Source: Mustelus asterias (lineage: Eukaryota). From it: DNA of 64,000 nt. The position numbers were made by a program, and so were the translations under genes. Location of the stretch: assembly GCF_964213995.1 (NCBI RefSeq), contig NW_027590173.1, positions 372,001-436,000 of the forward strand. The letters are read 5' to 3'. Shown here piece after piece: positions 10,638 to 64,000 of the stretch; the stretch's first letter is position 1, and every line of letters begins with the position of its first letter. The notes beneath the pieces are model-generated. The model was not told the origin of the DNA. It made no database searches and saw nothing but the letters and a program-made list of their open reading frames with translations.

Positions 10638-11868
10638 GGAAGTACTAGACGACAAAGGATACTCTGTCCACCGTGTCCCATGTTTGTCTTCTGAGGAGGT
10701 CGGTGCGGTTTTTCGCTGTGGCGCGTTGGAACTGTCGATCGATGAGTCGAGCGCCATATCCTGTTCTTGTGAGGGCATCTTTCAGCGTCTGGAGGTGTCC
10801 GTTGCGATCCTCCTCATCTGATCAGACCCTGTGTATATGGGAGTTAAAAACCTCACCAACCTCCTCAGAAGACAAACACGAGACACGGTGGACAGAGTAT
10901 CCTCCGTCGTCCAGTACTTCCCCGGAGCGGAGAAGTTACGGCATCTCCTCCGGAGCCTTCAACATGTCATTGATCAAGACGAACATCTCGCCAAGGCCAT
11001 CCCCACACCCCCACTTCTTGCCTTCAAACAACCGCACAACCTCAAACAGACCATTGTCCGCAGCAAACTACCCAGCCTTCAGGAGAACATTGACCACGAC
11101 ACCACACAACCCTGCCACAGCAACCTCTGCAAGACGTCCTGGATTATCGACACGGATGCCATCATCTCACGTGAGTACACCATCTACCAAGTACACGGTA
11201 CCTACTCTTGCAACTCGGCCAGCATTGTCTACCTGATACATTGCAGGAAAGGATGTCCCGAGGCATGGTACATTGGGGAAACCATGCAGATGCTACGACA
11301 ACGGATGAATGAACACCGCTCGACAATCACCAGGCAAGACTGTTCTCTTCCTGTGGGGGAGCACTTCAGCGGTCACGGGCATTCACCTTCTGATCTTCGG
11401 GTAAGCGTTCTCCAAGGCGGTCTTCACGACACACGACAGCGCAGAGTCACTGAGCAGAAACTGATAGCCAAGTTCCGTACACATGAGGACGGCCTAAACC
11501 GGGATCTTGGATTTATGTCACACTATCAGTGACCCCCACAGCTTGCCTCCTGGACTTGCAGAATCTCACTGGCTGTCCTGTCTGCAGACAATGCACATCT
11601 CTTTAACCTGTGTTTAATGCTCCCTCCACTCACATTGTCTGTATCTTTAAGACCTGGTTGGCTGGAGAGATTTACATTCTAATCAGTATTCTGTAACTTG
11701 ATTTTGTGTCTCTGTATGCCCTGTTTGAGAGCAGATATCCACTCCATCTGACGAAGGAGCAGCGCTCCGAAAGCTAATTGCATTTGCTACCAAATAAACC
11801 TGTTGGACTTTAACCTGGCGTTGTTAAAACTCTTACTGTGATTACCCCAACGCCGGCATCTCCACATT
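10638..11868 (+). mobile_element. Penelope-like element (GIY-YIG end) with inverted 5' segment
   Basis: ORF 10831-11532 has VYLIHC...WYIGET..RQRMNEH; the segment starting at 10638 is an inverted copy of about 10845-10922; 3' end carries a hammerhead-like motif at 11744-11780. Confidence 0.9.
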
Positions 11869-14220: not shown

Positions 14221-15282
14221 GGGATCCAATGGACACTCAGTGCTTCCATTTGTGAAGCCAAGGATCCCATCCACTTTGCGAACGACTGTCCGAAACTATC
14301 TCACTTTCAAATATCTCCCTGAACCTCACTCCCTCTGAGCCTGCACACTGTTTCGAACTGGACCATTCAGTTTATTTTGCCTCTCCCCATCTCTTCTGTG
14401 AAAAGGCAGCACTGTTCCTGAGTGTGGGATTAATAATGTGTCTCTTCCACAATATCAGTGAGAACTGATACTGCAGCTTCTGTTTCTCCAAGAGAATCTT
14501 TCTGGCTAAAGCCAGAATTTACAAGGATTTCTGTCACTGAGACATTGTCTGGCCGTCTGTGTCTCGCCGCCCTAACTCACTCTGTCTCTGTCTCTCCCTC
14601 CAACCACTCTCATCGACTCTATGTGAAGGCAGGATATTGTTGTTTAGTGACTGAGTGCACACAATCTGTATCTTCATCTGATCAAATAGAATTCAGCTTG
14701 TGAACAATATCATCATTTCAACCAGTTCTGGGTTAAATCAGGCACTGCTCTGATTGGCTGCAGCCCCCTGAATCTGGGGAGCAGCACCGGCCTCAGAGGC
14801 TTTTACAGTTACTGAGCCGGGAAACTCCAACAAATCCCTGAGAATCCACAGCACAGAGCGAGAGGAAAGCCTGTCCTGGGAGCTGTCAATCTGAGACACA
14901 GTTTGACCCTGTCAATGTGCAGATGTGAACCTGCTCCTTCCATTCCCAAACTGTTATAACCAAGAATACAGAACGCCCAGTAGTGACCAGCTTGTTGCAA
15001 TGTGTTTGAATGAACATGATGTGATATCATCGAAGCAGCATTTTGAAATATTCATTCAATGTATTCTGATTATTTAATGCTCTGTGTGCATTCTTATGCC
15101 ATTGCATAAGAATCTTCCTCTGACATGAGACCGTGTTTTGCCTTTGTGCCTTGATGCTGCTTTAAAAAAACATGTTCATGTTATGAATTTTCTCATCGAA
15201 CCATAGGAAGAATTATAGAAAAATAACAGCACAGAAGGAAGCCATTGAACCTATCCTGCCATGCCAGTCCAAGGACACAGCA

Positions 15283-15770
15283 AGAAATCTCACAACACCA
15301 GGTTAAAGTCCAACAGGTTTATTTTTTTTTATACTTTTCCAATTCAATCAAATCAAATCCAATTCAGAGTCTCAACAAGTTGAGACATTTCAGATCCAGG
15401 CTGACAAGACAGGGCGAGCGACCAAACCACCCTGTCCTGGGCCTGATCTACATGAGCCAAGCTGATTGGAGAAGGGGGAGGTTCCTCCTCCAAGACCTGA
15501 GCTCATTTGCATCTTAGCCAAAAGGCCGAGATGCCGCTTTTAAAAATTGCTTCATATGAAACATATGAAGCCTGTAACCTAATGACCTCGACCAAGTGCG
15601 GCCGACCATGGGCTGCCGTCCATACACTTGATCTTAGCCAAAAGGCCGAGGTTTATTTGGTAGCAAAAGCCACTAGTTTCAGAGCGCTTGCAGCTCCTTC
15701 ATCAGATGAGTGGGAGTTCTATTCACGAACAGGGCATATAAAGACACAAATTCAATTTACAAAATAATAT
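15283..15770 (-). mobile_element. Penelope 3'-end fragment interrupted by a U2-headed insertion
   Basis: ACAACACCAGGTTAAAGTCCAACAGGTTTATT|TGGTAGCAAA motif, shared with the other Penelope ends, is split at about 15325-15650. Confidence 0.8.
15325..15650 (-). mobile_element. U2 snRNA-headed short retroposon
   Basis: 5' end is U2 sequence (CTCGGCCTTTTGGCTAAGATCAAGTGTA); internal second U2 match at 15511-15531; poly(A) tail; duplication (ag)gtttattt at 15315-15324 and 15649-15658. Confidence 0.8.
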
Positions 15771-19815: not shown

Positions 19816-20043
19816 AAAGCAAATCACTGCGGATGCTGGAATCTGAAACCAAAAGAGAAAATGCTGGAAAATCTCAGCAAGTCTGGCAGCATCTGTAAGG
19901 AGAGAAAAGAGCTGACGTTTCGAGTCCAGACGATCCGTTGTCAAAGCTTTGACAAAGAGTAATCTGGACTCGAAATGTCAGCTCTTTTCTTTCTTTACAG
20001 ATGCTGTCAGACCTGCTGAGATTTTCCAGTATTTTATCTTTTG
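19816..20043. repeat. Palindromic short interspersed element
   Basis: ~95-bp inverted arms centred on AAAGCTTT (about 19946); single arms recur at about 2270-2400, 3130-3230 and 23530-23640. Confidence 0.75.
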
Positions 20044-21887: not shown

Positions 21888-22029
21888 GAGAGGTTGGAGG
21901 AGCCGGGAGCTGACAGCAGCTTGTCTCTGCTCCGTCCGCTCTCTGCCTTTAAGTTGCTCTGTGCCGCCACCACTGGGTTCATTTCGGATCCAGTTCTGAC
22001 TCACACACATTTTCCACACACTCTCGGAT

Positions 22030-22695
22030 ATGACTGAAACTGCAGCCGCCGAAACGGCTCCTCCAGCCGCTCCCGCTCAAGTGAAGTCTCCCAGGAAGAA
22101 GAAGGCGGCTCCCCGACCTGCGGCAGCCGGTCCCAAGTTGGGCGAGCAGATCCTCAATGTTGTGGCGGGATGCCGCGATCGCAAGGGGATGTCCCTGGCC
22201 GCGATAAAGAAAGCTTTGGCTGGCAGCGGAGTGGATGTGGGGAAGCGCGTCTCCCAGATCAGGTTAACGATCAAGAGGAAGGTGGAGACAGGGTCTCTGG
22301 TGCAGACAAAGGGACAGGGCGCCTCCGGCTCCTTCAAACTCGCTAAGAAGGAAAGCCCGGGGAAAATGGGAAAGAAGGTGAAGAAACCAACAGCCAAGAA
22401 ATCTTTAGTAAAGAAAACAGCGGCCAAGAAGGTGACAACAAAGAAAGCAGCAGCCAAGAAACCCGCAGCCAAGAAACCCGCAGCAAAGAAAACTCCAGTG
22501 AAGAAATCAACAGTGAAGAAAACAAGCAGCAAAAAGGCGGCAACTCCAAAAAAGGTGGTGAAGAAAGCAGCCCTGAAGAAAAAGTCTCCTGTGAAGAAGG
22601 TGACGGGCGGAAAGTCTGTCAAAAAAGTGACTAAATCGAAAGCCAAACCCAAAGTGAAAGCAGCAAAAGCGAAGAAAGCGTCAGGAAAGAAGTGA
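22030..22695 (+). CDS. H1: Linker histone H1, replication-dependent type
   Basis: Globular domain (LVQTKGQGASGSFKL), Lys/Ala-rich tail, intronless, downstream stem-loop. Confidence 0.97.
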   Translation: MTETAAAETAPPAAPAQVKSPRKKKAAPRPAAAGPKLGEQILNVVAGCRDRKGMSLAAIKKALAGSGVDVGKRVSQIRLTIKRKVETGSLVQTKGQGASGSFKLAKKESPGKMGKKVKKPTAKKSLVKKTAAKKVTTKKAAAKKPAAKKPAAKKTPVKKSTVKKTSSKKAATPKKVVKKAALKKKSPVKKVTGGKSVKKVTKSKAKPKVKAAKAKKASGKK

Positions 22696-22731
22696 AACAA
22701 CCCGAGCAAATTGTAAACCTCTGAACCCAAA

Positions 22732-22772
22732 GGCTCTTCTCAGAGCCACCCACATCTCTCAGGAAAGAGCTG
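22732..22772 (+). terminator. Histone 3' stem-loop plus HDE (H1)
   Basis: GGCTCTTCTCAGAGCC followed by GAAAGAGCTG. Confidence 0.93.
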
Positions 22773-22992
22773 ATCCCGCAAGGAAATGATTCCTGTCCCG
22801 CGGCCCGGCTCATTCTTAATAGAGATCATTTCAAATTCAGACTAAAGCAAAACACAGCAGATGCTGAATTTCATTTGAATTTCACATTTGTTCAATCGCC
22901 ACTTTCTCTCATAATAAAGATGTCTGTTAGATTCAGTGTGAGACAGTAACACTGGCGGCTAAACACCGCATTCCTGCCTCATTTTTAACCGA

Positions 22993-23265
22993 ATCCCTGC
23001 AATGCAGAAGGAGGCCAATCGTCCCATCGAGTCTGCACCGACCTCAATCCCACCCAGTCCGGATCCCCATGACCCTATTTATTGACCGGACTTACCCCCT
23101 GACACTCCGGTGCAATTTAGCATGGCCAATCAACCTGACAGGCACGTTGTTGTGCGGGAGGAAACCGGAGCACCCGGAGGAAGCCCAGGGAGAATGTGCA
23201 AACTCCACACAGACAGTGACCTCAGCCGGGAATCGAACCCAGGTGCCTGGCGCTGTGAGACGGCA
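22993..23265 (-). mobile_element. HE1-like V-SINE
   Basis: GGAGGAAACCGGAGCACCCGGAGG and tRNA head, reverse orientation. Confidence 0.8.
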
Positions 23266-23284
23266 ATTCTTCGCCAAACATCAA

Positions 23285-23354
23285 TGTCAGGAGTGGGATT
23301 TGAACCCACGCCTCCAGAGGAGACTGCGGCCTTAGACCGCTCGGCCATCCTGAC
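23285..23354 (-). pseudogene. tRNA-Leu(CAG) lacking the anticodon (13-nt deletion)
   Basis: GTCAGGATGGCCGAGCGGTCTAAGGC|CGCAGTCTCC...GGTTCAAATCCCACTCCTGACA. Confidence 0.88.
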
Positions 23355-23960
23355 TCCCTTAATTTTAACACAGGAGATTGCCCCAAACAGCTTCAATAAA
23401 GTGTTTGCAAACAGCGAGAAGCAGATGTGTGTGAGGGTGTTCCGGAGGAAGATTCTTGCTACAGAATCGACTGTGTTTCGGTCGGAATATTACTGTCTGG
23501 GAATTATTCCGGGACCAGGTTTAAAAACACAAAAGGACAAAGTCACGACCCGAAACGTTAACTCTGTCTCTCTCTCTCTTCACAAAAGCTGCCGGAGCTG
23601 CTGATAATTTGCAGCATTTTCTGTTTTGATTCCATATTTCAAAGCTCCGGGTTTGTGGAAACTCTTGACTGTGAAGGGCGGCTCTGGTAGTGTTTGTGTG
23701 GGGAGCTGTGTTTCGCTTCCATTGTTAATAAACGGGTTGAAATTGGCGGTTGCAGAAACTGGAGGTGGAGCTGAAAGATCAGGGGCCGTTCTGTGTGTGT
23801 GTGTCAGTCCGGCTCTCTCCTCCCTCCCGCTCTGTGTTTAATCTTCACCCTGTACCTCCCCTCTCTGCTCTCACTCCGCCTTTCTCAGTCAGGTCGGGGC
23901 GGGCTGTATAAAAGGAGCCTGAAAGAGTTCTTCTCCCATATTGTGCAGTGATCTGAGTGA

Positions 23961-24281
<321 letters not shown>

Positions 24282-24315
24282 ACAACTGCAACCTTCCTCC
24301 CGAACACACAACAAA

Positions 24316-24331
24316 GGCTCTTTTCAGAGCC
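24316..24331 (+). terminator. Histone 3' stem-loop (H4)
   Basis: GGCTCTTTTCAGAGCC. Confidence 0.95.
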
Positions 24332-24744
24332 ACTCACCGCCTCACAGAGAGAGCAGTGACCTGGGGACGGGGGCTGGGACAGGCTGTTCAGTGGTGGAGA
24401 TGAATATTTGCTTTGTTCAGGTTGAATTTAACATTTCATTTGCAGTAGGGATTGAAATTGTTTTTATTTTTAATTGGATGATCTAAATAGCTCTACCGTT
24501 TCTGCAGTTGTTGATTTTCCCCAGTTGACATGTGCCCTCAGTGAAAAGCCACATCACTCCTGTTTAATCACTGTGTTTGAATAGAGTTTATAAAAGCTTT
24601 CTCTGGAATAGCGGAGTTTAGTAGCAGCAGCCGGTGAATCGTTCACTGGAACCAGTCCCAGTTGTGATGCTATTTGCCCCCAGACGGTTGTTTCCTGCAC
24701 TGAAACTGACAGGCTTTGTCCTCTTTTTAGGTCAAACCAAACCA

Positions 24745-25411
24745 AGTAAACAAACTCAGATTAAATCAGGACAAAGTAAAAGGGGCAGCTCCCAAAAAGG
24801 AGGGGGAACAGCCCGAACAGAAATCAAAGTACAAAGGAAACTTAAAAACATCAAATTAAAATGTGATTATTGGGGTCAATAATGCACCCCAACCCCTGCG
24901 GTGCCCAGCGGGCACGGAAAGCGTCAACCTCGCCCGTGGACACCGCATGCTCCCTCTCCAGGGACACCTGGCCGCGAACGTAGCCGCGGCAGAGGGGAAG
25001 ACAGTCAGGATGGACGGCCCCCTCGATCGCCCGCTGCCTGGACCGGTAAATGGCGCGTTTCGCCAGGCCCAGGAGCAGGTTCACGAGGAGGTCGCAATCC
25101 CGACCCTCCCCTCTCCGCACCGGGTGTCCGTAGATCAGGAGCGTGGGACTGAAGTGCAAACAAAACATCAATAAAAGGTTCTTTAGGAAAACATAAAGGG
25201 AGTGCAGCCTAAGACACACAACATAGACATGGTCCACGGACTCCACAAGGCCACAGAAAGGGCAGTCTTCGGAGCCCGTGAACCAGTGAATCCTACGGTT
25301 GTGCGGAACTGCTGCATGCATCACCCTCCACCCCAGGTCCCCGACGTAATTGGGGGAGATCCCTCCGTAGAGGGACCTCCAGCGGGGACCTCCGCCGCCC
25401 GGCGGCAACAA
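24745..25411 (-). mobile_element. Tx1-clade non-LTR retrotransposon 3' fragment (zf-RVT region)
   Basis: Open 186-aa frame with DLGWRVMH, CPFCGLVESVDHVYVVC and LLLGLAKRAIY, followed by a U-rich 3' UTR. Confidence 0.85.
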
Positions 25412-26220
25412 GGCCCGCCAAGGTGTAGAAACTGATCAGTTTCCGCTCAATCATTCACAAACCCGCAATTCCCGCAGTTTGAGCCGCTCCAACCCCAGCC
25501 TGCTTCTGATTGGCCATCCTCTCCGCATTCGCAGCTCTGAACCAATCGCAGAGCATCGAATGTGAAGATTGAGCCAATCATTGGCTTCAACTGTCAACCG
25601 GCATAAATTTTGAATTGGGGAAAATGCCGCCAATTTCAGCGCGGGAAAGGGAATTGAGACAAATTCTTAACTTATTAAAAATAGATTCTCAATTAATATT
25701 CTGCTGTAAGATTATTTTACAAAAGCTTTCATTTGTCCGCCACGGGAAGCAAACGGCTCTATTCAGTAATGTCAAACGGGACAAATATGAAGTCACTCTC
25801 TGTAACAAACAACAGACTCAACCCCTTTCACACCGGCTTCAGGGAGACACAGAGAAGCGACAGATTTCTGATCCTTTCCGCTGAAAGCGGCGGCGAATGT
25901 CACAAACGACAGGGGAGGGGCAATCTGAATGGGCTGGAGAGGAAAGGGACGGGGATAGAGTGGAACAGTGGGAGATTCTGGGAATGAACAGCCCAGAGAG
26001 CGGGGAAAGGGTCTAAAGCACTAAGTGGAGGGAGATGGACTTCAAATCTTCAATGTTTCTGGTAATGGTTATATTAATAAGGACGGAATAAAGTCTTCTT
26101 TGAAACAGACGGTTATTTCTTGCATCGAAAACGGCCCAATTTCTGAAAGGGGCGGTTAAGGAAACCACTGAACCAATTAGAACCTGAGTTACAGATATTA
26201 ATTCCCTGGTCACAATTTGA

Positions 26221-26754
<534 letters not shown>

Positions 26755-26783
26755 AATCCGGCTTCAGCACCAAGTACAACAAC

Positions 26784-26824
26784 GGCTCTTTTAAGAGCCA
26801 CCAACTCGACAAATGAAAGAGCTG
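26784..26824 (+). terminator. Histone 3' stem-loop plus HDE (H3)
   Basis: GGCTCTTTTAAGAGCC and GAAAGAGCTG. Confidence 0.95.
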
Positions 26825-27201
26825 CGATCTCCTGTTAACGATTCTAGTGTTTCAATTCCCAGGACAGAATATTCCCAGGACTCCAGTACTGACACCTCTC
26901 AATGTTACAATTAACTCTCCGTTGCATTGAGGTCACTCATATCTCCAATCCTTTGATGGTTGGAGTAAAAGCGATGCCGTTAACAATTTTACTACAATTT
27001 AATTTTAAAGTAGTTTATTAAACCTGCGATCATTTCAGTTTCCGAGCAATAATTCCGCAAATCCACTTTCTCCGCACGTGTTTCGAGTCGCAGCGAGAAT
27101 GTTGAAAATTGTGTCAATTAAGTTCAGAATATGAAACATGTCTCAAACAGTAACCCACTCACACAGATATAGCCATTGCAGGAACGCTTGCACATTCGCA
27201 T

Positions 27202-27305
27202 AGACAATAATTAACACTTTTCCAGATCCAGTGACTGACTTTGTGAGAACATTCATCGGTTTTCAAAGTCAGTCACTGGATCTGGAAAAGTGTTAATTAT
27301 TGTCT
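27202..27305. repeat. Perfect 42-bp inverted repeat, 20-nt loop
   Basis: 27202-27243 is the reverse complement of 27264-27305. Confidence 0.9.
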
Positions 27306-27531
27306 CTGAACGTCTATGCGACTATCACATTTTAAAGCAATTATATTGGAAATAGGATCATTTCAGTTCACTGGGATGGTTTCCCCGATAAACAGCAGCA
27401 ACTTGTATGAAAATACTGTATGCGTCAATAGTACGGATTGATAGAACAAAGCGGGAAACAGCTGTACTGTGAATAGCAGTGCAGAAACTGACCGATAGAC
27501 ACCAGGTCGCCCTTTTTCAGATAAAGTGAGT

Positions 27532-27547
27532 GGCTCTGAAAAGGGCC
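27532..27547 (-). terminator. Histone 3' stem-loop (H2A), one stem mismatch
   Basis: GGCCCTTTTCAGAGCC on the minus strand. Confidence 0.9.
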
Positions 27548-27577
27548 TTTGGGTTATCAGATTAAAGAATGGGCGCT

Positions 27578-28027
<450 letters not shown>

Positions 28028-28997
28028 TTATAAACTGACAGCTCCTCTGATTGGCCGCTACTCTATTCACCTCATTTGCCTATATTCTTCACCAATCAGC
28101 TCACTGGAAACAGAAGAGGGCGGGATTTCCCCACAACATCCGGCAGAAGCAGAGAATTTGTCCATTTCCAAAAGCCGCCAATTTCATTGTGGGAAAGGAG
28201 CGAATTCAAATCAATGTCGTCATCAGTCAGAGATTTCAAATCCCTTCTATTGATTTGCTTTTATTCAGCTCTTCCCGTCACCAATCTCAGGCGCGGCTTT
28301 AACATTTTCTTTCAATGTGCTTCATTCTCCTATCGCTTTCTAACTGTCCCGGGCGGGAATCAATCCCTGTTCACAGCATTCCCAGAAGGAAAACACTCCG
28401 TTTCGTCTTCAATCAGAACCCACTCTTCTTCACAGAAAACAGGGAGCCGGATCGAATCCTCACACTGTCCTTATTCCGCTCTGTAATAATCCCACTCCGG
28501 AATGTTACCCTGCGGAGAATTACTGCGAATAAAATGATGAATCAATGAACATTTCAGGAATTGAGAGAAGGGACCGTTACCGCGAAAAACAGCCGCTAAT
28601 TTAGGAGCTGTGAAAATAACAGAATAATAACAGTTTTCAGCACAAAGCGAAGGCAGCTGAGTGAATTCTGGGTCAGTGTTTGGATTGCAGGACAGGAGAC
28701 ACAAACGAAAGTTTAAAAGATAATTTATTAGTCACAAGTAGGCTTACATTTAACACTGCAATTAAATTACTGTGAAAATCCATCAGTCGCCACACTCCGA
28801 CGCCTGTTCGGGTACACTGAGGGAGAATTTAGCATTCACCCAACTTGCACATCTTTAGACTGTGGGAGAAAACAGGAGCACTTTCCTCTTTCAGAAGAGG
28901 AAAGAGGCAGAGGATGGATGTACTGGTCTGGAAACCCAGAGACCTGGGTTCAAATCCCAATGGGGTGGATTCCTAATGGGGCAAATTAGAAGTTTAT

Positions 28998-59132: not shown

Positions 59133-60376
59133 ACGAGAACTGGCTGTCAAATAGGCACATCATCTGTCTCTCCTGCAGTTTGGGTCTGTGGAATTGATCA
59201 GCTGTCTGTGTCTCTGAGCTGTCAGTGACAATGTACGGACTGTGTGTGAGAAGGAAGGAGTTGGCAACAATTTCCCCTGTAACTTGTGTGGAGGAAATAT
59301 CACGTTTGTTTTGGATCTGTCAAATATTTGTCTGTGGAAACAAAGTACATTTAATATCTCAAATCCAGATTCCGTCAGTTTAATCTCTATTAATAATCAT
59401 TGTGAGCGGTTTGTGAGGCTGCAGCCAGACTCGAGCTCTGATTGGTCACTCACATTTCAATCACATTCTTAACCAATCGGAGAGCCAGGTAGAAGAAATG
59501 GGAGGTTTTGATTGGTTCACATTTTCAAACTGGAAAAACCCGCCAATTTCAGTGCAGGAAAAATACAAAATAACGGAACGCCTGAATGTTCAGGAAACTA
59601 TTTCAATCTCACACTTTATAATCTGTTTATTGTATTTTCCCTCAGAATCCTGGCGCTATTTTAGGAACAGTTTGAATTTCTCAATCTCTTATCTATAACC
59701 CGCGGTAATCAGACCCCGTTCAGCAATTTAAAACGGAGCAAATCTCAGCTCAGTGGAAAAGCAGAGCTTCACAGGGACAGAGAGAAACGGCTGATTTCTG
59801 ATCCTCTCCCCTGAAAGCGGCCGGGAATGTTACAATGGGAAGTGCGGAGAGAATCCCCGGCCCGATCCCGCCGGTGGAACAGGCAGCTTTGTGTCCGGAG
59901 AATAGGGAGCGCCGGGGGGAGGCAGATCTTAAAGCGCTGCAATGGACTCAGGTCCTGTGTGTGCACAGATCTGGCTGATTCCGTCCTCTGGGAAAGCTGC
60001 GGAATAAACAGATCAGCCCGAGAATAACCTCTTCATTCCCGCCTTTACTCTGTTGCGGGAGCTGCTCCCAGATCACCCGAGAAAAAAAAATTAATTCAGG
60101 GTCGTGAAACTCTGAATATAGTGATAAATAAATTTAAATAATTACCTCCTGATATTCTTTCTCCCCATTGTCCGTGACAATCCCCAGACTGGGATTTAAA
60201 ATACGCTCTCAGTTCAGTTTGATTGTCCCTTCAATGTGAAAGTGTGTGTGAGGGGCGGGTATGAAGTCCCATTCACAGCATTCTGCACCGGGACAAATCT
60301 CTATCCTCCAGAAAGACATTTCTCATTCACTCAATAAGGGAAAAGATGGCGCAGCTTTTTCACAGGGATTGTGAGT

Positions 60377-60392
60377 GGCTCTTAAAAGAGCC
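60377..60392 (-). terminator. Histone 3' stem-loop (H2B)
   Basis: GGCTCTTTTAAGAGCC on the minus strand, AAAAAGCTG downstream. Confidence 0.95.
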
Positions 60393-60427
60393 GTTGTGTT
60401 TGGGGTGTTTTCAGTCCATGGGGAGTT

Positions 60428-60814
60428 TTACTTGGAGCTGGTATACTTGGTCACCGCCTTTGTCCCTTCCGACACGGCGTGCTTGGCCAGTTCCCCGGGC
60501 AGCAGCAGGCGCACGGCGGTCTGGATCTCCCGGGAGCTGATGGTGCTGCGCTTGTTGTAATGGGCCAGGCGGGAAGCCTCACCCGCGATGCGCTCGAAAA
60601 TATCGTTCACGAACGAGTTCATGATGCTCATGGCCTTGGAGGAGATGCCGGTGTCGGGGTGAACCTGCTTCATCACTTTGTAGATGTAGATGGAGTAACT
60701 CTCCTTCCTCGACTTTCGCCGCTTCTTGCCGCCCTTTGTTCCCGGTTTCTTAATCACTTTCTTCGCCCCCTTCTTGGGAGCTGGTTTCGGTGTTGGTTTC
60801 TTCTCATCAGCCAT
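60428..60814 (-). CDS. H2B: Histone H2B
   Basis: [26 protein letters not shown]...KYTSSK; ATG at 60814. Confidence 0.99.
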
Positions 60815-60854
60815 CTTCAATTTCACACAGAAATAAAGCAAACCCCTTCCGAGC

Positions 60855-61035
60855 GCTGATTAAATAGACAATCCCACAGAACTATGCTAATGAGGAATTG
60901 GGAAAGCAATGATTGTGATTGGACATTTTGAAAGTTATTACAGTCACTTATCAGGGATTCAATTGAGTGGATATGAAAACAGACCAATCAGATTGAGGGG
61001 TTTCCGCCAATCACAAGCCTCCTTACCACAATCAG
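60855..61035. promoter_or_regulatory. H2B promoter, potentially bidirectional
   Basis: TATTTAA (minus strand), octamer-like ATTAGCAT (60884-60891), CCAAT boxes in both orientations (about 60918, 60984, 61007). Confidence 0.75.
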
Positions 61036-61113
61036 GAAATACATTTTACAAAGAATCTCCAGCGCCAGTTTGTCAGTGTGTAAAGATACACCGGGACCGG
61101 CGGCCATTACAAG

Positions 61114-61422
61114 ATGGCGGCGGCTCCTTCCAGAAAGAGCTTCGTGATCTTCGTGTCGCGGGTGCCCTGGACCCTGGCCGGCAAAGAAATCAAAGAATAT
61201 TTTGGACAGTTTGGATTAGTAAAGAAATGTCTTCTTCCATTCGACAAAGAGACTGGATTTCATAGAGGATTCTGTTGGGTTGGCTTCAATACAGAAGAAG
61301 GGCTTCAGAATGCACTGCAGAAGGAACCACACCTCCTTGAAGGGGCAAAGCTTCAAGTTCAGAGAAACAGAAAATTGTTTCAAGGGCGCAGACCAAATAA
61401 AGTCACTGAATCAGCAAATTGA
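61114..61422 (+). CDS. SLIRP: SLIRP-like RRM protein, intronless retrocopy with intact ORF
   Basis: FVSRVPWT...[12 protein letters not shown]...EEGLQNALQ matches SLIRP; ATTAAA, A9 tail and 15-bp TSD. Confidence 0.88.
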
Positions 61423-62522: not shown

Positions 62523-64000
62523 GACCATAAGTTATCGGAGCAGAATTAGGCCACTCGGCCCATCGAGTCTTATCCGTCAATCATGACTGATATTTTTCTC
62601 TTCCTCATTCTCCTGCCTTTTCCCCATAATCCCTGGTCCCCTTATTAATCAAGTCTATCTATCTCTGACTTAAAAAACACTCAATGACTTGGCCTCCACA
62701 GCCTTCTGCAACAAAGAGTTCCACAGATTCACCAGTCCCTGGCTGAACAAATTACAGTAAGAAGTCTCACAACACCAGGTTAAAGTCCAACAGGTTTATT
62801 TGGTAGCAAATACCATAAGCTTTCGGAGCAATGCTCCTTCGTCAGATGGAGTGGTCTCTGTTCTCAAACAGGGCACAGACACAGAAATCAAATTACAGAA
62901 TACTGATTAGAATGCAAATCTCTACAGCCAGCCAGGTCTTAAATGTACAGACAATGTGGGTGGAGGGAGCATTCAACACAGGTTAAAGAGATGTGTATTG
63001 TCTCCAGACAGTACAGCTTGTAAAATTGTGCAAGTCCAGGAGGCAAGCTGTGGGGGTTACTGATAATGTGACATAAATCCAACATCCCGGTTTAGACCGT
63101 CCTCATGTGTGCGGAACTTGGCTATCAGTTTCTGCTCAGTGACTCTGCGCTGTCGTGTGTCGTGAAGGCCGCCTTGGAGAACGCTTGCCTGAAGATCCAA
63201 GGCTGAATGCCCGTGACTGCTGAAGTGCTCCCCCACAGGAAGAGAACAGTCTTGCCTGGTGATTGTCGAGCGGTGTTCATTCATCCGTTGTCGTAGCGTC
63301 TGATGAATGACAACGGATGAATGAACACCGCTCGACAATCACCAGGCAAGACTGTTCTCTTCCTGTGGGGGAGCACTTCAGCAGTCACGGGCATTCAGCC
63401 TTGGATCTTCAGGTAAGCGTTCTCCAAGGCGGCCTTCACGACACACGACAGCGCAGAGTCACTGAGCAGAAACTGATAGCCAAGTTCCGCACACATGAGG
63501 ACGGTCTAAACCGGGATGTTGGATTTATGTCACATTATCAGTAACCCCCACAGCTTGCCTCCTGGACTTGCACAATTTTACAAGCTGTACTGTCTGGAGA
63601 CAATACACATCTCTTCAACCTGTGTTGAATGCTCCCTCCACCCACATTGTCTGTACATTTAAGACCTGGCTGGCTGTAGAGATTTGCATTCTAATCAGTA
63701 TTCTGTAATTTGATTTCTGTGTCTGTGCCCTGTTTGAGAACAGAAACCACTCCATCTGACGAAGGAGCATTGCTCCGAAAGCTTATGGTATTTGCTACCA
63801 AATAAACCTGTTGGACTTTAACCTGGTGTTGTGAGACTTCTTACTGTGCTTACCCCAGTCCAACGCCGGCATCTCCACATCATGAACAAATTACTCCACA
63901 TCTCTGTTTTAAAGGATCGTCCCTTTAGCCTGAGATTGTGCCCTCTGGTTCTAGTTTTTCCTGATTTTGGAAACAAACTCTCCATGTCCACTCTATCCAG
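62522..64000 (-). mobile_element. CR1 3' end interrupted by a Penelope palindrome
   Basis: CR1 tail at 62522-62750 continues after 63894. Confidence 0.8.
62756..63882. mobile_element. Penelope-like element as an inverted dimer with TSD
   Basis: Two GIY-YIG C-terminal copies in opposite orientation; 12-bp TSD TGAACAAATTAC (62744-62755 and 63883-63894). Confidence 0.92.

Follow-up and report, generated by a model that had tools for sequence, protein, structure and literature searches.

A U2-headed retroposon copy, candidate for a SINEU-like family, in a Penelope-type terminal repeat of Mustelus asterias

A 326-nt retro-insertion on the minus strand of Mustelus asterias DNA (15650-15325) begins with an exact fragment of U2 small nuclear RNA (snRNA), and the sequence that follows this head includes an arm predicted to pair with it. 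All positions are those of the window, the 64,000-nt stretch of contig NW_027590173.1 (positions 372,001 to 436,000) that was analysed. We read the insert, with roughly even confidence, as a single copy of a retroposon that is non-autonomous and non-coding and behaves in the manner of the SINEU elements, and as a candidate for a family. The anti-U2 arm complementary to the head is what is new here; two U2 pieces alone are already known from SINEU-1, as excerpts of the SINEU report describe (PMC4494074).

The insert and its target site

The insert is flanked by a perfect 10-bp target-site duplication, AAATAAACCT, the two copies of which (15658-15649 at the 5′ side and 15324-15315 at the 3′ side, both minus strand) agree at 10/10 positions and sit at an A-rich site. 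The last 2 nt of the 5′ copy are at the same time U2 nt 8-9, a microhomology, and because these two bases serve both purposes a preliminary description of the locus had given the duplication as 8-10 bp. The retro-insertion with poly(A) and duplication recognised there is real, with an exact duplication of 10 bp and a short poly(A): a remnant of 6 A (15325-15330), or 9 when the three in common with the duplication are counted, preceded on the minus strand by a G/T-rich tail of short GATT(T)-type repeats (15331-15368). Neither a credible open reading frame (ORF) nor an ORF remnant was found in the open reading frames and protein searches of the insert, and a bacterial SprB-repeat protein that matched one of its frames was rejected as spurious. 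Runs of four and five T occur inside the insert and B-box matches number 0 within 15325-15650, against 24 in the 64-kb window, which together argue against transcription by RNA polymerase (Pol) III.

The U2 head (15650-15623, minus strand) matches the Rfam U2 consensus at 28/28 positions, nt 8-35, and is unedited; the first 7 nt of U2 are absent. The 28-nt 5′ segment ending in AAGTGTA that had been noticed previously is thus exact. Scored as a whole, the U2 model RF00004 reached 25.1 bits, below its gathering score of 46, so the insert is not a U2 gene, and no Rfam family attained its threshold within the insert. Unlike in a tailless U2 retropseudogene, the head is followed by a body of about 300 nt and by poly(A).

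The repeat that received the insert is divided into a left part (15659-15768, minus strand), with a minimal hammerhead core from 15705, and a right part (15275-15314, minus strand). We take it to be a Penelope-type terminal repeat on the strength of the hammerhead core, and a frame at 10822-11532 (+), directly before an empty host repeat, presumably resembles the GIY-YIG endonuclease of Penelope elements; this frame found no match in Pfam, NCBIfam or PDB. Minimal hammerhead cores occur nine times in the window, six of them in the host-type repeat, that is, in the host and five of its empty copies (15705 and 11748, 31648, 51305, 62845 and 63756), with a stem II that differs in two subfamilies. 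Such cores mark Penelope terminal repeats (PMC4209133, excerpts). Alignment of six empty host-repeat copies, from which a seventh, partial copy (19280-19251) was left out, showed a single instance of the site in each; its letters are identical in five of them, and in the sixth a T is changed to A. This bears out the earlier observation that a Penelope end is cleanly split. The intact duplication inside the repeat indicates that the insert entered the repeat, here or in a parent repeat. The site that it entered is not U2-like, which lends no support to the preliminary suggestion that the internal U2 copy might act in target recognition, and its 3′ flank is Penelope-type repeat, not U2.

Predicted RNA structure and the inner U2 copy

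Structure was assessed by folding the single sequence and comparing it with shuffles. The insert is predicted to fold at -142 kcal/mol (z -7.44), a stability that 0/100 shuffles equalled, and the excess over shuffles is larger for the sense than for the antisense strand (-46 versus -29). Against a background of 196 window tiles of 326 nt, less two that overlap the insert, each folded on one random strand with four shuffles, 2/194 exceeded the excess of the insert, and both are long DNA palindromes.

The most distinctive part of the predicted fold lies at the 5′ end, where a small apical hairpin (15622-15600, minus strand) links the head to the anti-U2 arm (15599-15576, minus strand). The arm is predicted to form three colinear stems of 5, 5 and 10 bp with U2 nt 11-34, giving a duplex of 20 bp (14 Watson-Crick and 6 G-U pairs) in which two 2x2 loops separate the stems; 6/6 departures from the perfect complement within the stems are G-U compatible. 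For head and arm together, z was -4.42 in the sense and -1.06 in the antisense orientation, and when the head was held fixed and the next 50 nt were shuffled, 0/1000 sequences folded as well and 1/2000 yielded as good a duplex. The predicted pair probabilities of U2 stem I in the head are 0, the head pairing with the arm instead. When 5116 window tiles were paired with the head, only those of the insert itself reached the value of the arm, and three unrelated tiles came within 0.6 kcal/mol of it, so a match of this strength to the head is rare rather than unique. A tally of G-U against A-C over all antidiagonals was set aside, as its segments overlap and base composition favours G-U. In these folding models the head and arm look co-adapted, and this argues against a one-off chimera. 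The presence of the arm further implies either that head and body shared one RNA lineage for a time or that the body binds U2.

Further downstream, a perfect 10-bp hairpin (15571-15549, minus strand) is followed by an unpaired A/U linker with a run of five T (15548-15535, minus strand) and then by an inner U2 copy (15534-15502, minus strand). This copy corresponds to about U2 nt 4-36; it differs by 2 substitutions, 1 insertion and 1 deletion, and its stem-loop I is predicted to be extended. An exact 20-nt repeat of the head lies within it at 15530-15511, 120 nt downstream of the first occurrence; the 20-nt U2 pattern occurs 2 times in the window and in 0 of 100 shuffles. Beyond this match the inner copy departs from the head by an inserted G, a G-to-A change and a deleted T. 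Aligned to the Rfam consensus, it extends further to nt 4-7, where one base is changed, and to nt 36. Two of the four edits are predicted to give stem-loop I additional base pairs (z -2.6 when flanks are included, -5.3 when they are not). Both U2 copies end at nt 35-36, the inner one edited and the outer one not, and an edited inner copy lying beneath an unedited outer copy with a common end is what repeated 5′ addition predicts. From this arrangement of the sequence we infer that an older U2 head, since edited, survives as the inner copy.

The preliminary description had seen a second U2 match fused to an octamer, and a CCAAT, in what it took for a U2-promoter-driven element. The second copy stands, but the octamer ATGCAAAT (15512-15505, minus strand) is not a separate fused part: it lies within the inner U2 copy, where it corresponds in register to U2 nt 26-32 apart from an inserted base and a changed one, and it pairs in the extended stem, where it closes a longer hairpin. 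Of 3000 shuffles of the insert, 2.9% contain the octamer, and across the window 4 were seen against 3.86 expected. CCAAT is indeed present (15469-15465, minus strand) and likewise appears in 71.5% of 3000 insert shuffles, its place in the insert being the 3′ arm of a hairpin. We therefore rejected both as promoter elements, the one being edited U2 nt 26-32 and the other a hairpin arm at chance level.

With the inner copy in hand, a single chimeric event can be weighed. On that account a reverse transcriptase copied the 5′-truncated end of a LINE or SINE and then switched to U2 RNA, the pairing of the head being chance or having favoured that one switch. U2/LINE-1 chimeras are known, usually as single events (PMC11838501, PMC4494074, both in excerpts), edits affect the inner copy but not the head, and the 64-kb window holds one copy. 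The 24-nt colinear complementarity directly past the junction, at the shuffle frequencies given above, would however demand a body already adapted to U2, and a second, older U2 piece that ends at nearly the same base speaks for an association that was not single; we consider this account improbable.

The remainder of the body consists of hairpin 1 (15506-15452, minus strand), which has a C/UCA internal loop and holds the CCAAT in its 3′ arm, its twin, hairpin 2 (15450-15391, minus strand), and a 7-bp hairpin (15386-15369, minus strand). The twins are alike in lower helix and C/UCA loop and differ in their upper stems, a likeness reached by 2/2000 shuffles, and the body that they form gave z -6.09 on the sense and -2.95 on the antisense strand. 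No HDV-like ribozyme of the R2-type leader kind was matched on the sense strand of 15300-15700 by strict or relaxed forms of a custom double-pseudoknot descriptor.

So strong a sense-strand structure would also suit a retrocopy of a structured host RNA (an snRNA variant driven by a U2 promoter, for instance, or an antisense U2 regulator) rather than a selfish element. The linker adds to this, as cmscan aligned its U-run to the U2 Sm site and we take a U-run between two hairpins to resemble a near Sm-site pattern. Yet a closing G is missing from the U-run, the insert scores below threshold for every Rfam family, and nested U2 heads with a G/T-rich tail and poly(A) fit retroposons better, so that we regard a host RNA as very unlikely.

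Comparison with U2-associated elements

In excerpts of the report that describes them, SINEU elements are recorded from crocodilians only (Kojima 2015, PMC4494074). SINEU-1 acquired U1 or U2 heads repeatedly, including a U2 head added onto the already U2-headed SINEU-1J; subfamilies with more than one U2 piece, occasional duplications of about 10 bp and insertion into another transposon are described, Pol III is argued against, and the mode of transcription and continued head gain are left open (PMC4494074, excerpts). SINEU-1, especially its subfamilies F, C, H and E, has in common with the insert a U2-derived head, a length below 500 bp, poly(A) and a duplication of about 10 bp, and in addition several snRNA pieces, internal oligo-T and residence in another transposon. 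Taken by the SINEU criteria, the insert has a U2 head matching at 28/28 positions, a short non-coding body, poly(A), an approximately 10-bp duplication and oligo-T, and no B-box. It differs in its target, which is a Penelope-type end with a hammerhead core, whereas SINEU favours Mariner-N4_AMi, and in its head-complementary arm, of which the excerpted SINEU text makes no mention (PMC4494074). We do not place the insert in a named crocodilian SINEU family, its target being different and its likeness to SINEU one of overall design. Of the U2-promoter-driven, non-autonomous SINEU-like element proposed in the preliminary description, the non-autonomous U2-headed build holds, the octamer and CCAAT fall away as promoter parts, and a U2 promoter would belong to a source copy.

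Among the points against the SINEU-like reading are the single copy in 64 kb, a poly(A) of 6-9 nt and a head that ends at nt 35, when the U2 sequence that follows Keno and Utopia insertions begins at nt 39 (PMC4640811, excerpts). The insertion site of Keno in U2 genes lies near nt 37-39 (PMC6136364, PMC4640811, excerpts), and some Tx1-Mar LINEs bear U1 or U2 heads (PMC4494074, excerpts). Keno and Tx1-Mar elements thus have an association with the U2 5′ region in common with the insert, but Keno encodes ORFs with an AP-type endonuclease and a reverse transcriptase and lies within a U2 gene, with U2 from nt 39 after it, whereas the insert has no ORFs and a Penelope-type repeat as 3′ flank. The 5′ U2 flank of Keno ends at about nt 37-38 and the head of the insert at nt 35, a difference that the loss of 3 nt from the GTA repeat would reconcile. 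Utopia, an RLE non-LTR element, likewise has a U2 5′ fragment upstream, and 5′ junctions of its U2-targeting members vary; its duplications measure 20 bp in reptile elements and are lacking in arthropod ones (PMC4640811, excerpts). Utopia has an RLE-type ORF and U2 or U2-like targets, in contrast to an insert with no ORF, no U2-like 3′ flank and a 10-bp duplication. Having no ORF and not lying in U2, the insert is classed neither as Keno nor as Utopia. Finally, snRNA/LINE chimeras and tailless U2 retropseudogenes resemble it in their 5′ snRNA piece and target duplication (PMC11838501, PMC5322556, PMC6789731, excerpts), but the chimeras are single events without an adapted body and the tailless copies have neither body nor poly(A).

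The main rival to the SINEU-like reading is a Keno-type LINE that suffered an internal deletion and landed off target. Its U2 leader would then stem from the U2-gene site of the parent, the arm from the 5′ UTR, and the 10-bp hairpin, inner U2 mimic, twin hairpins and tail from the 3′ UTR, the inner U2 copy being a standing part of the LINE 3′ UTR; movement would proceed as in the SINEU-like reading and only the origin would differ. A leader co-transcribed from the target would explain a U2-adapted arm, the head may be one that extended to nt 39 before losing a GTA unit, and we count in favour of this origin that teleost U2-associated LINE ends presumably resemble the inner copy and body. The Keno insertion site near nt 37-39 and the varying Utopia 5′ junctions cited above point the same way. 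Against it, the insert has no ORF remnant and its 3′ flank is not U2, and we hold this origin to be rather unlikely, though a serious contender.

Proposed mechanism and genomic context

Target-primed reverse transcription by an L1/Tx1-type protein leaves such traces as the poly(A), the 10-bp duplication at an A-rich site and the 5′ microhomology seen here, and an AP-type endonuclease would suit a duplication at such a site. Under the SINEU-like reading, the insert would have entered by this route, most likely through a protein of the Keno/Tx1-Mar lineage. U2 pieces would have been added to the 5′ end of the element more than once, the inner copy then being an older head. The outer head and arm would have evolved together in a source copy whose RNA begins with U2 nt 1-35; the simplest origin of such an RNA would be Pol II transcription running through from a U2 promoter. 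Folding would mask both U2 pieces, the arm covering the outer one and a lengthened stem-loop I with an edited branch-site sequence taking up the inner one; such masking may stabilise the RNA and prevent it from behaving like a defective U2 during splicing. The twin hairpins and tail may be the signal recognised by the partner LINE protein. No U2 promoter precedes the copy examined here, and it is probably silent except when transcription of the host repeat runs into it.

The arm could also act in trans. Pairing with nt 11-34 of cellular U2 snRNA, it would hold nt 35 beside the 5′ end of the element, and template jumping or RNA ligation would add a fresh head at a fixed position, with a Tx1-type LINE directed to Penelope ends as the means of spread. 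Capture of this kind would explain why both copies stop at nt 35-36 and why SINEU heads were added repeatedly, and ligation has a precedent in RtcB, which joins U6 to L1 RNA (PMC6789731, excerpts); we nevertheless think it distinctly improbable. Whichever way it works, the arm offers a testable handle, on cis masking of a U2-promoter transcript or on trans capture of U2, and, were the latter true, the RNA of the element would be a natural antisense binder of U2. The host lineage is probably new for snRNA-headed SINEs. A second SINEU-like lineage, if the insert belongs to a family, would mean that the design arose or persisted more widely than in crocodilians; if the element is catalogued in Repbase or Dfam, or is a deletion derivative of Keno, the gain shrinks to the observation on RNA structure.

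Relatives were sought at several levels. BLASTN of the insert against the window returned only the insert itself, the internal 20-nt repeat and short palindromes, that is, one copy in 64 kb. Motif scans of bacterial and archaeal genome contigs gave 0 matches, BLASTN against plasmids and phages gave none, and protein searches with the open frames of the insert recovered no relative, one of them giving no candidate and another two candidates that did not score. These collections hold no eukaryotic genomic DNA, so their negatives on copies say little; within them and the window, neither a second copy nor a source locus, transcript or partner LINE was found. Motifs of the insert had 0 matches in the supplements of the Utopia paper, and in literature text, among the matches listed, only the shortest motif was hit, in no relevant context. 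Among the titles and abstracts listed from the open literature, none concerned an snRNA-headed SINE in cartilaginous fish; the element may already be catalogued.

The window does contain a 5′-truncated Tx1-like LINE end (25435-24725, minus strand), comprising the ORF2 C-terminus and 3′ UTR, which lies between histone genes and is flanked by an imperfect duplication of 11-12 bp. Its ORF2 end (25435-24851) has a weak zf-RVT match and is 74% and 54% identical to two unnamed proteins, and tblastn with these two homologues found this LINE end as the only match in the window. Its sequence suggests that Tx1-like LINEs are present in the source genome. As a partner of the insert this particular element is unsupported: the likeness between its 3′ UTR, the one 3′ UTR compared, and the tail of the insert was equalled by 81/2000 and 173/1000 shuffles.

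The insert and its host repeat lie within a duplicated unit with two tRNA-like copies (16400-15770 and 20460-19590, both minus strand; 73% column identity), each paralog of which has later insertions of its own. The paralog near 19.6-20.5 kb has neither the host repeat nor the insert at the matching place, indicating that both arrived after the unit was duplicated. The 64-kb window otherwise contains histone genes, further tRNA-like copies, CR1/L2-type reverse transcriptase frames and repeats. The histone cluster (22000-28030 and 60350-60860) comprises H1, H4, H3, H2A and H2B frames and three histone 3′ stem-loops, with tRNA-like copies between, and a short intronless frame beside the H2B gene (61084-61422, plus strand) we take to encode an RRM protein of SLIRP type. 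Long DNA palindromes lie at about 27180-27330 and about 19850-20040, the second being an insertion missing from the paralogous tRNA unit. The octamer occurs also inside the Penelope-type repeat (62912-62919 and 63682-63689), upstream of the site of the insert, and the host copy is truncated just beyond this octamer-bearing stretch. At 62730-63880, two inverted Penelope-type ends are joined in a near-perfect fold-back of about 1.1 kb.
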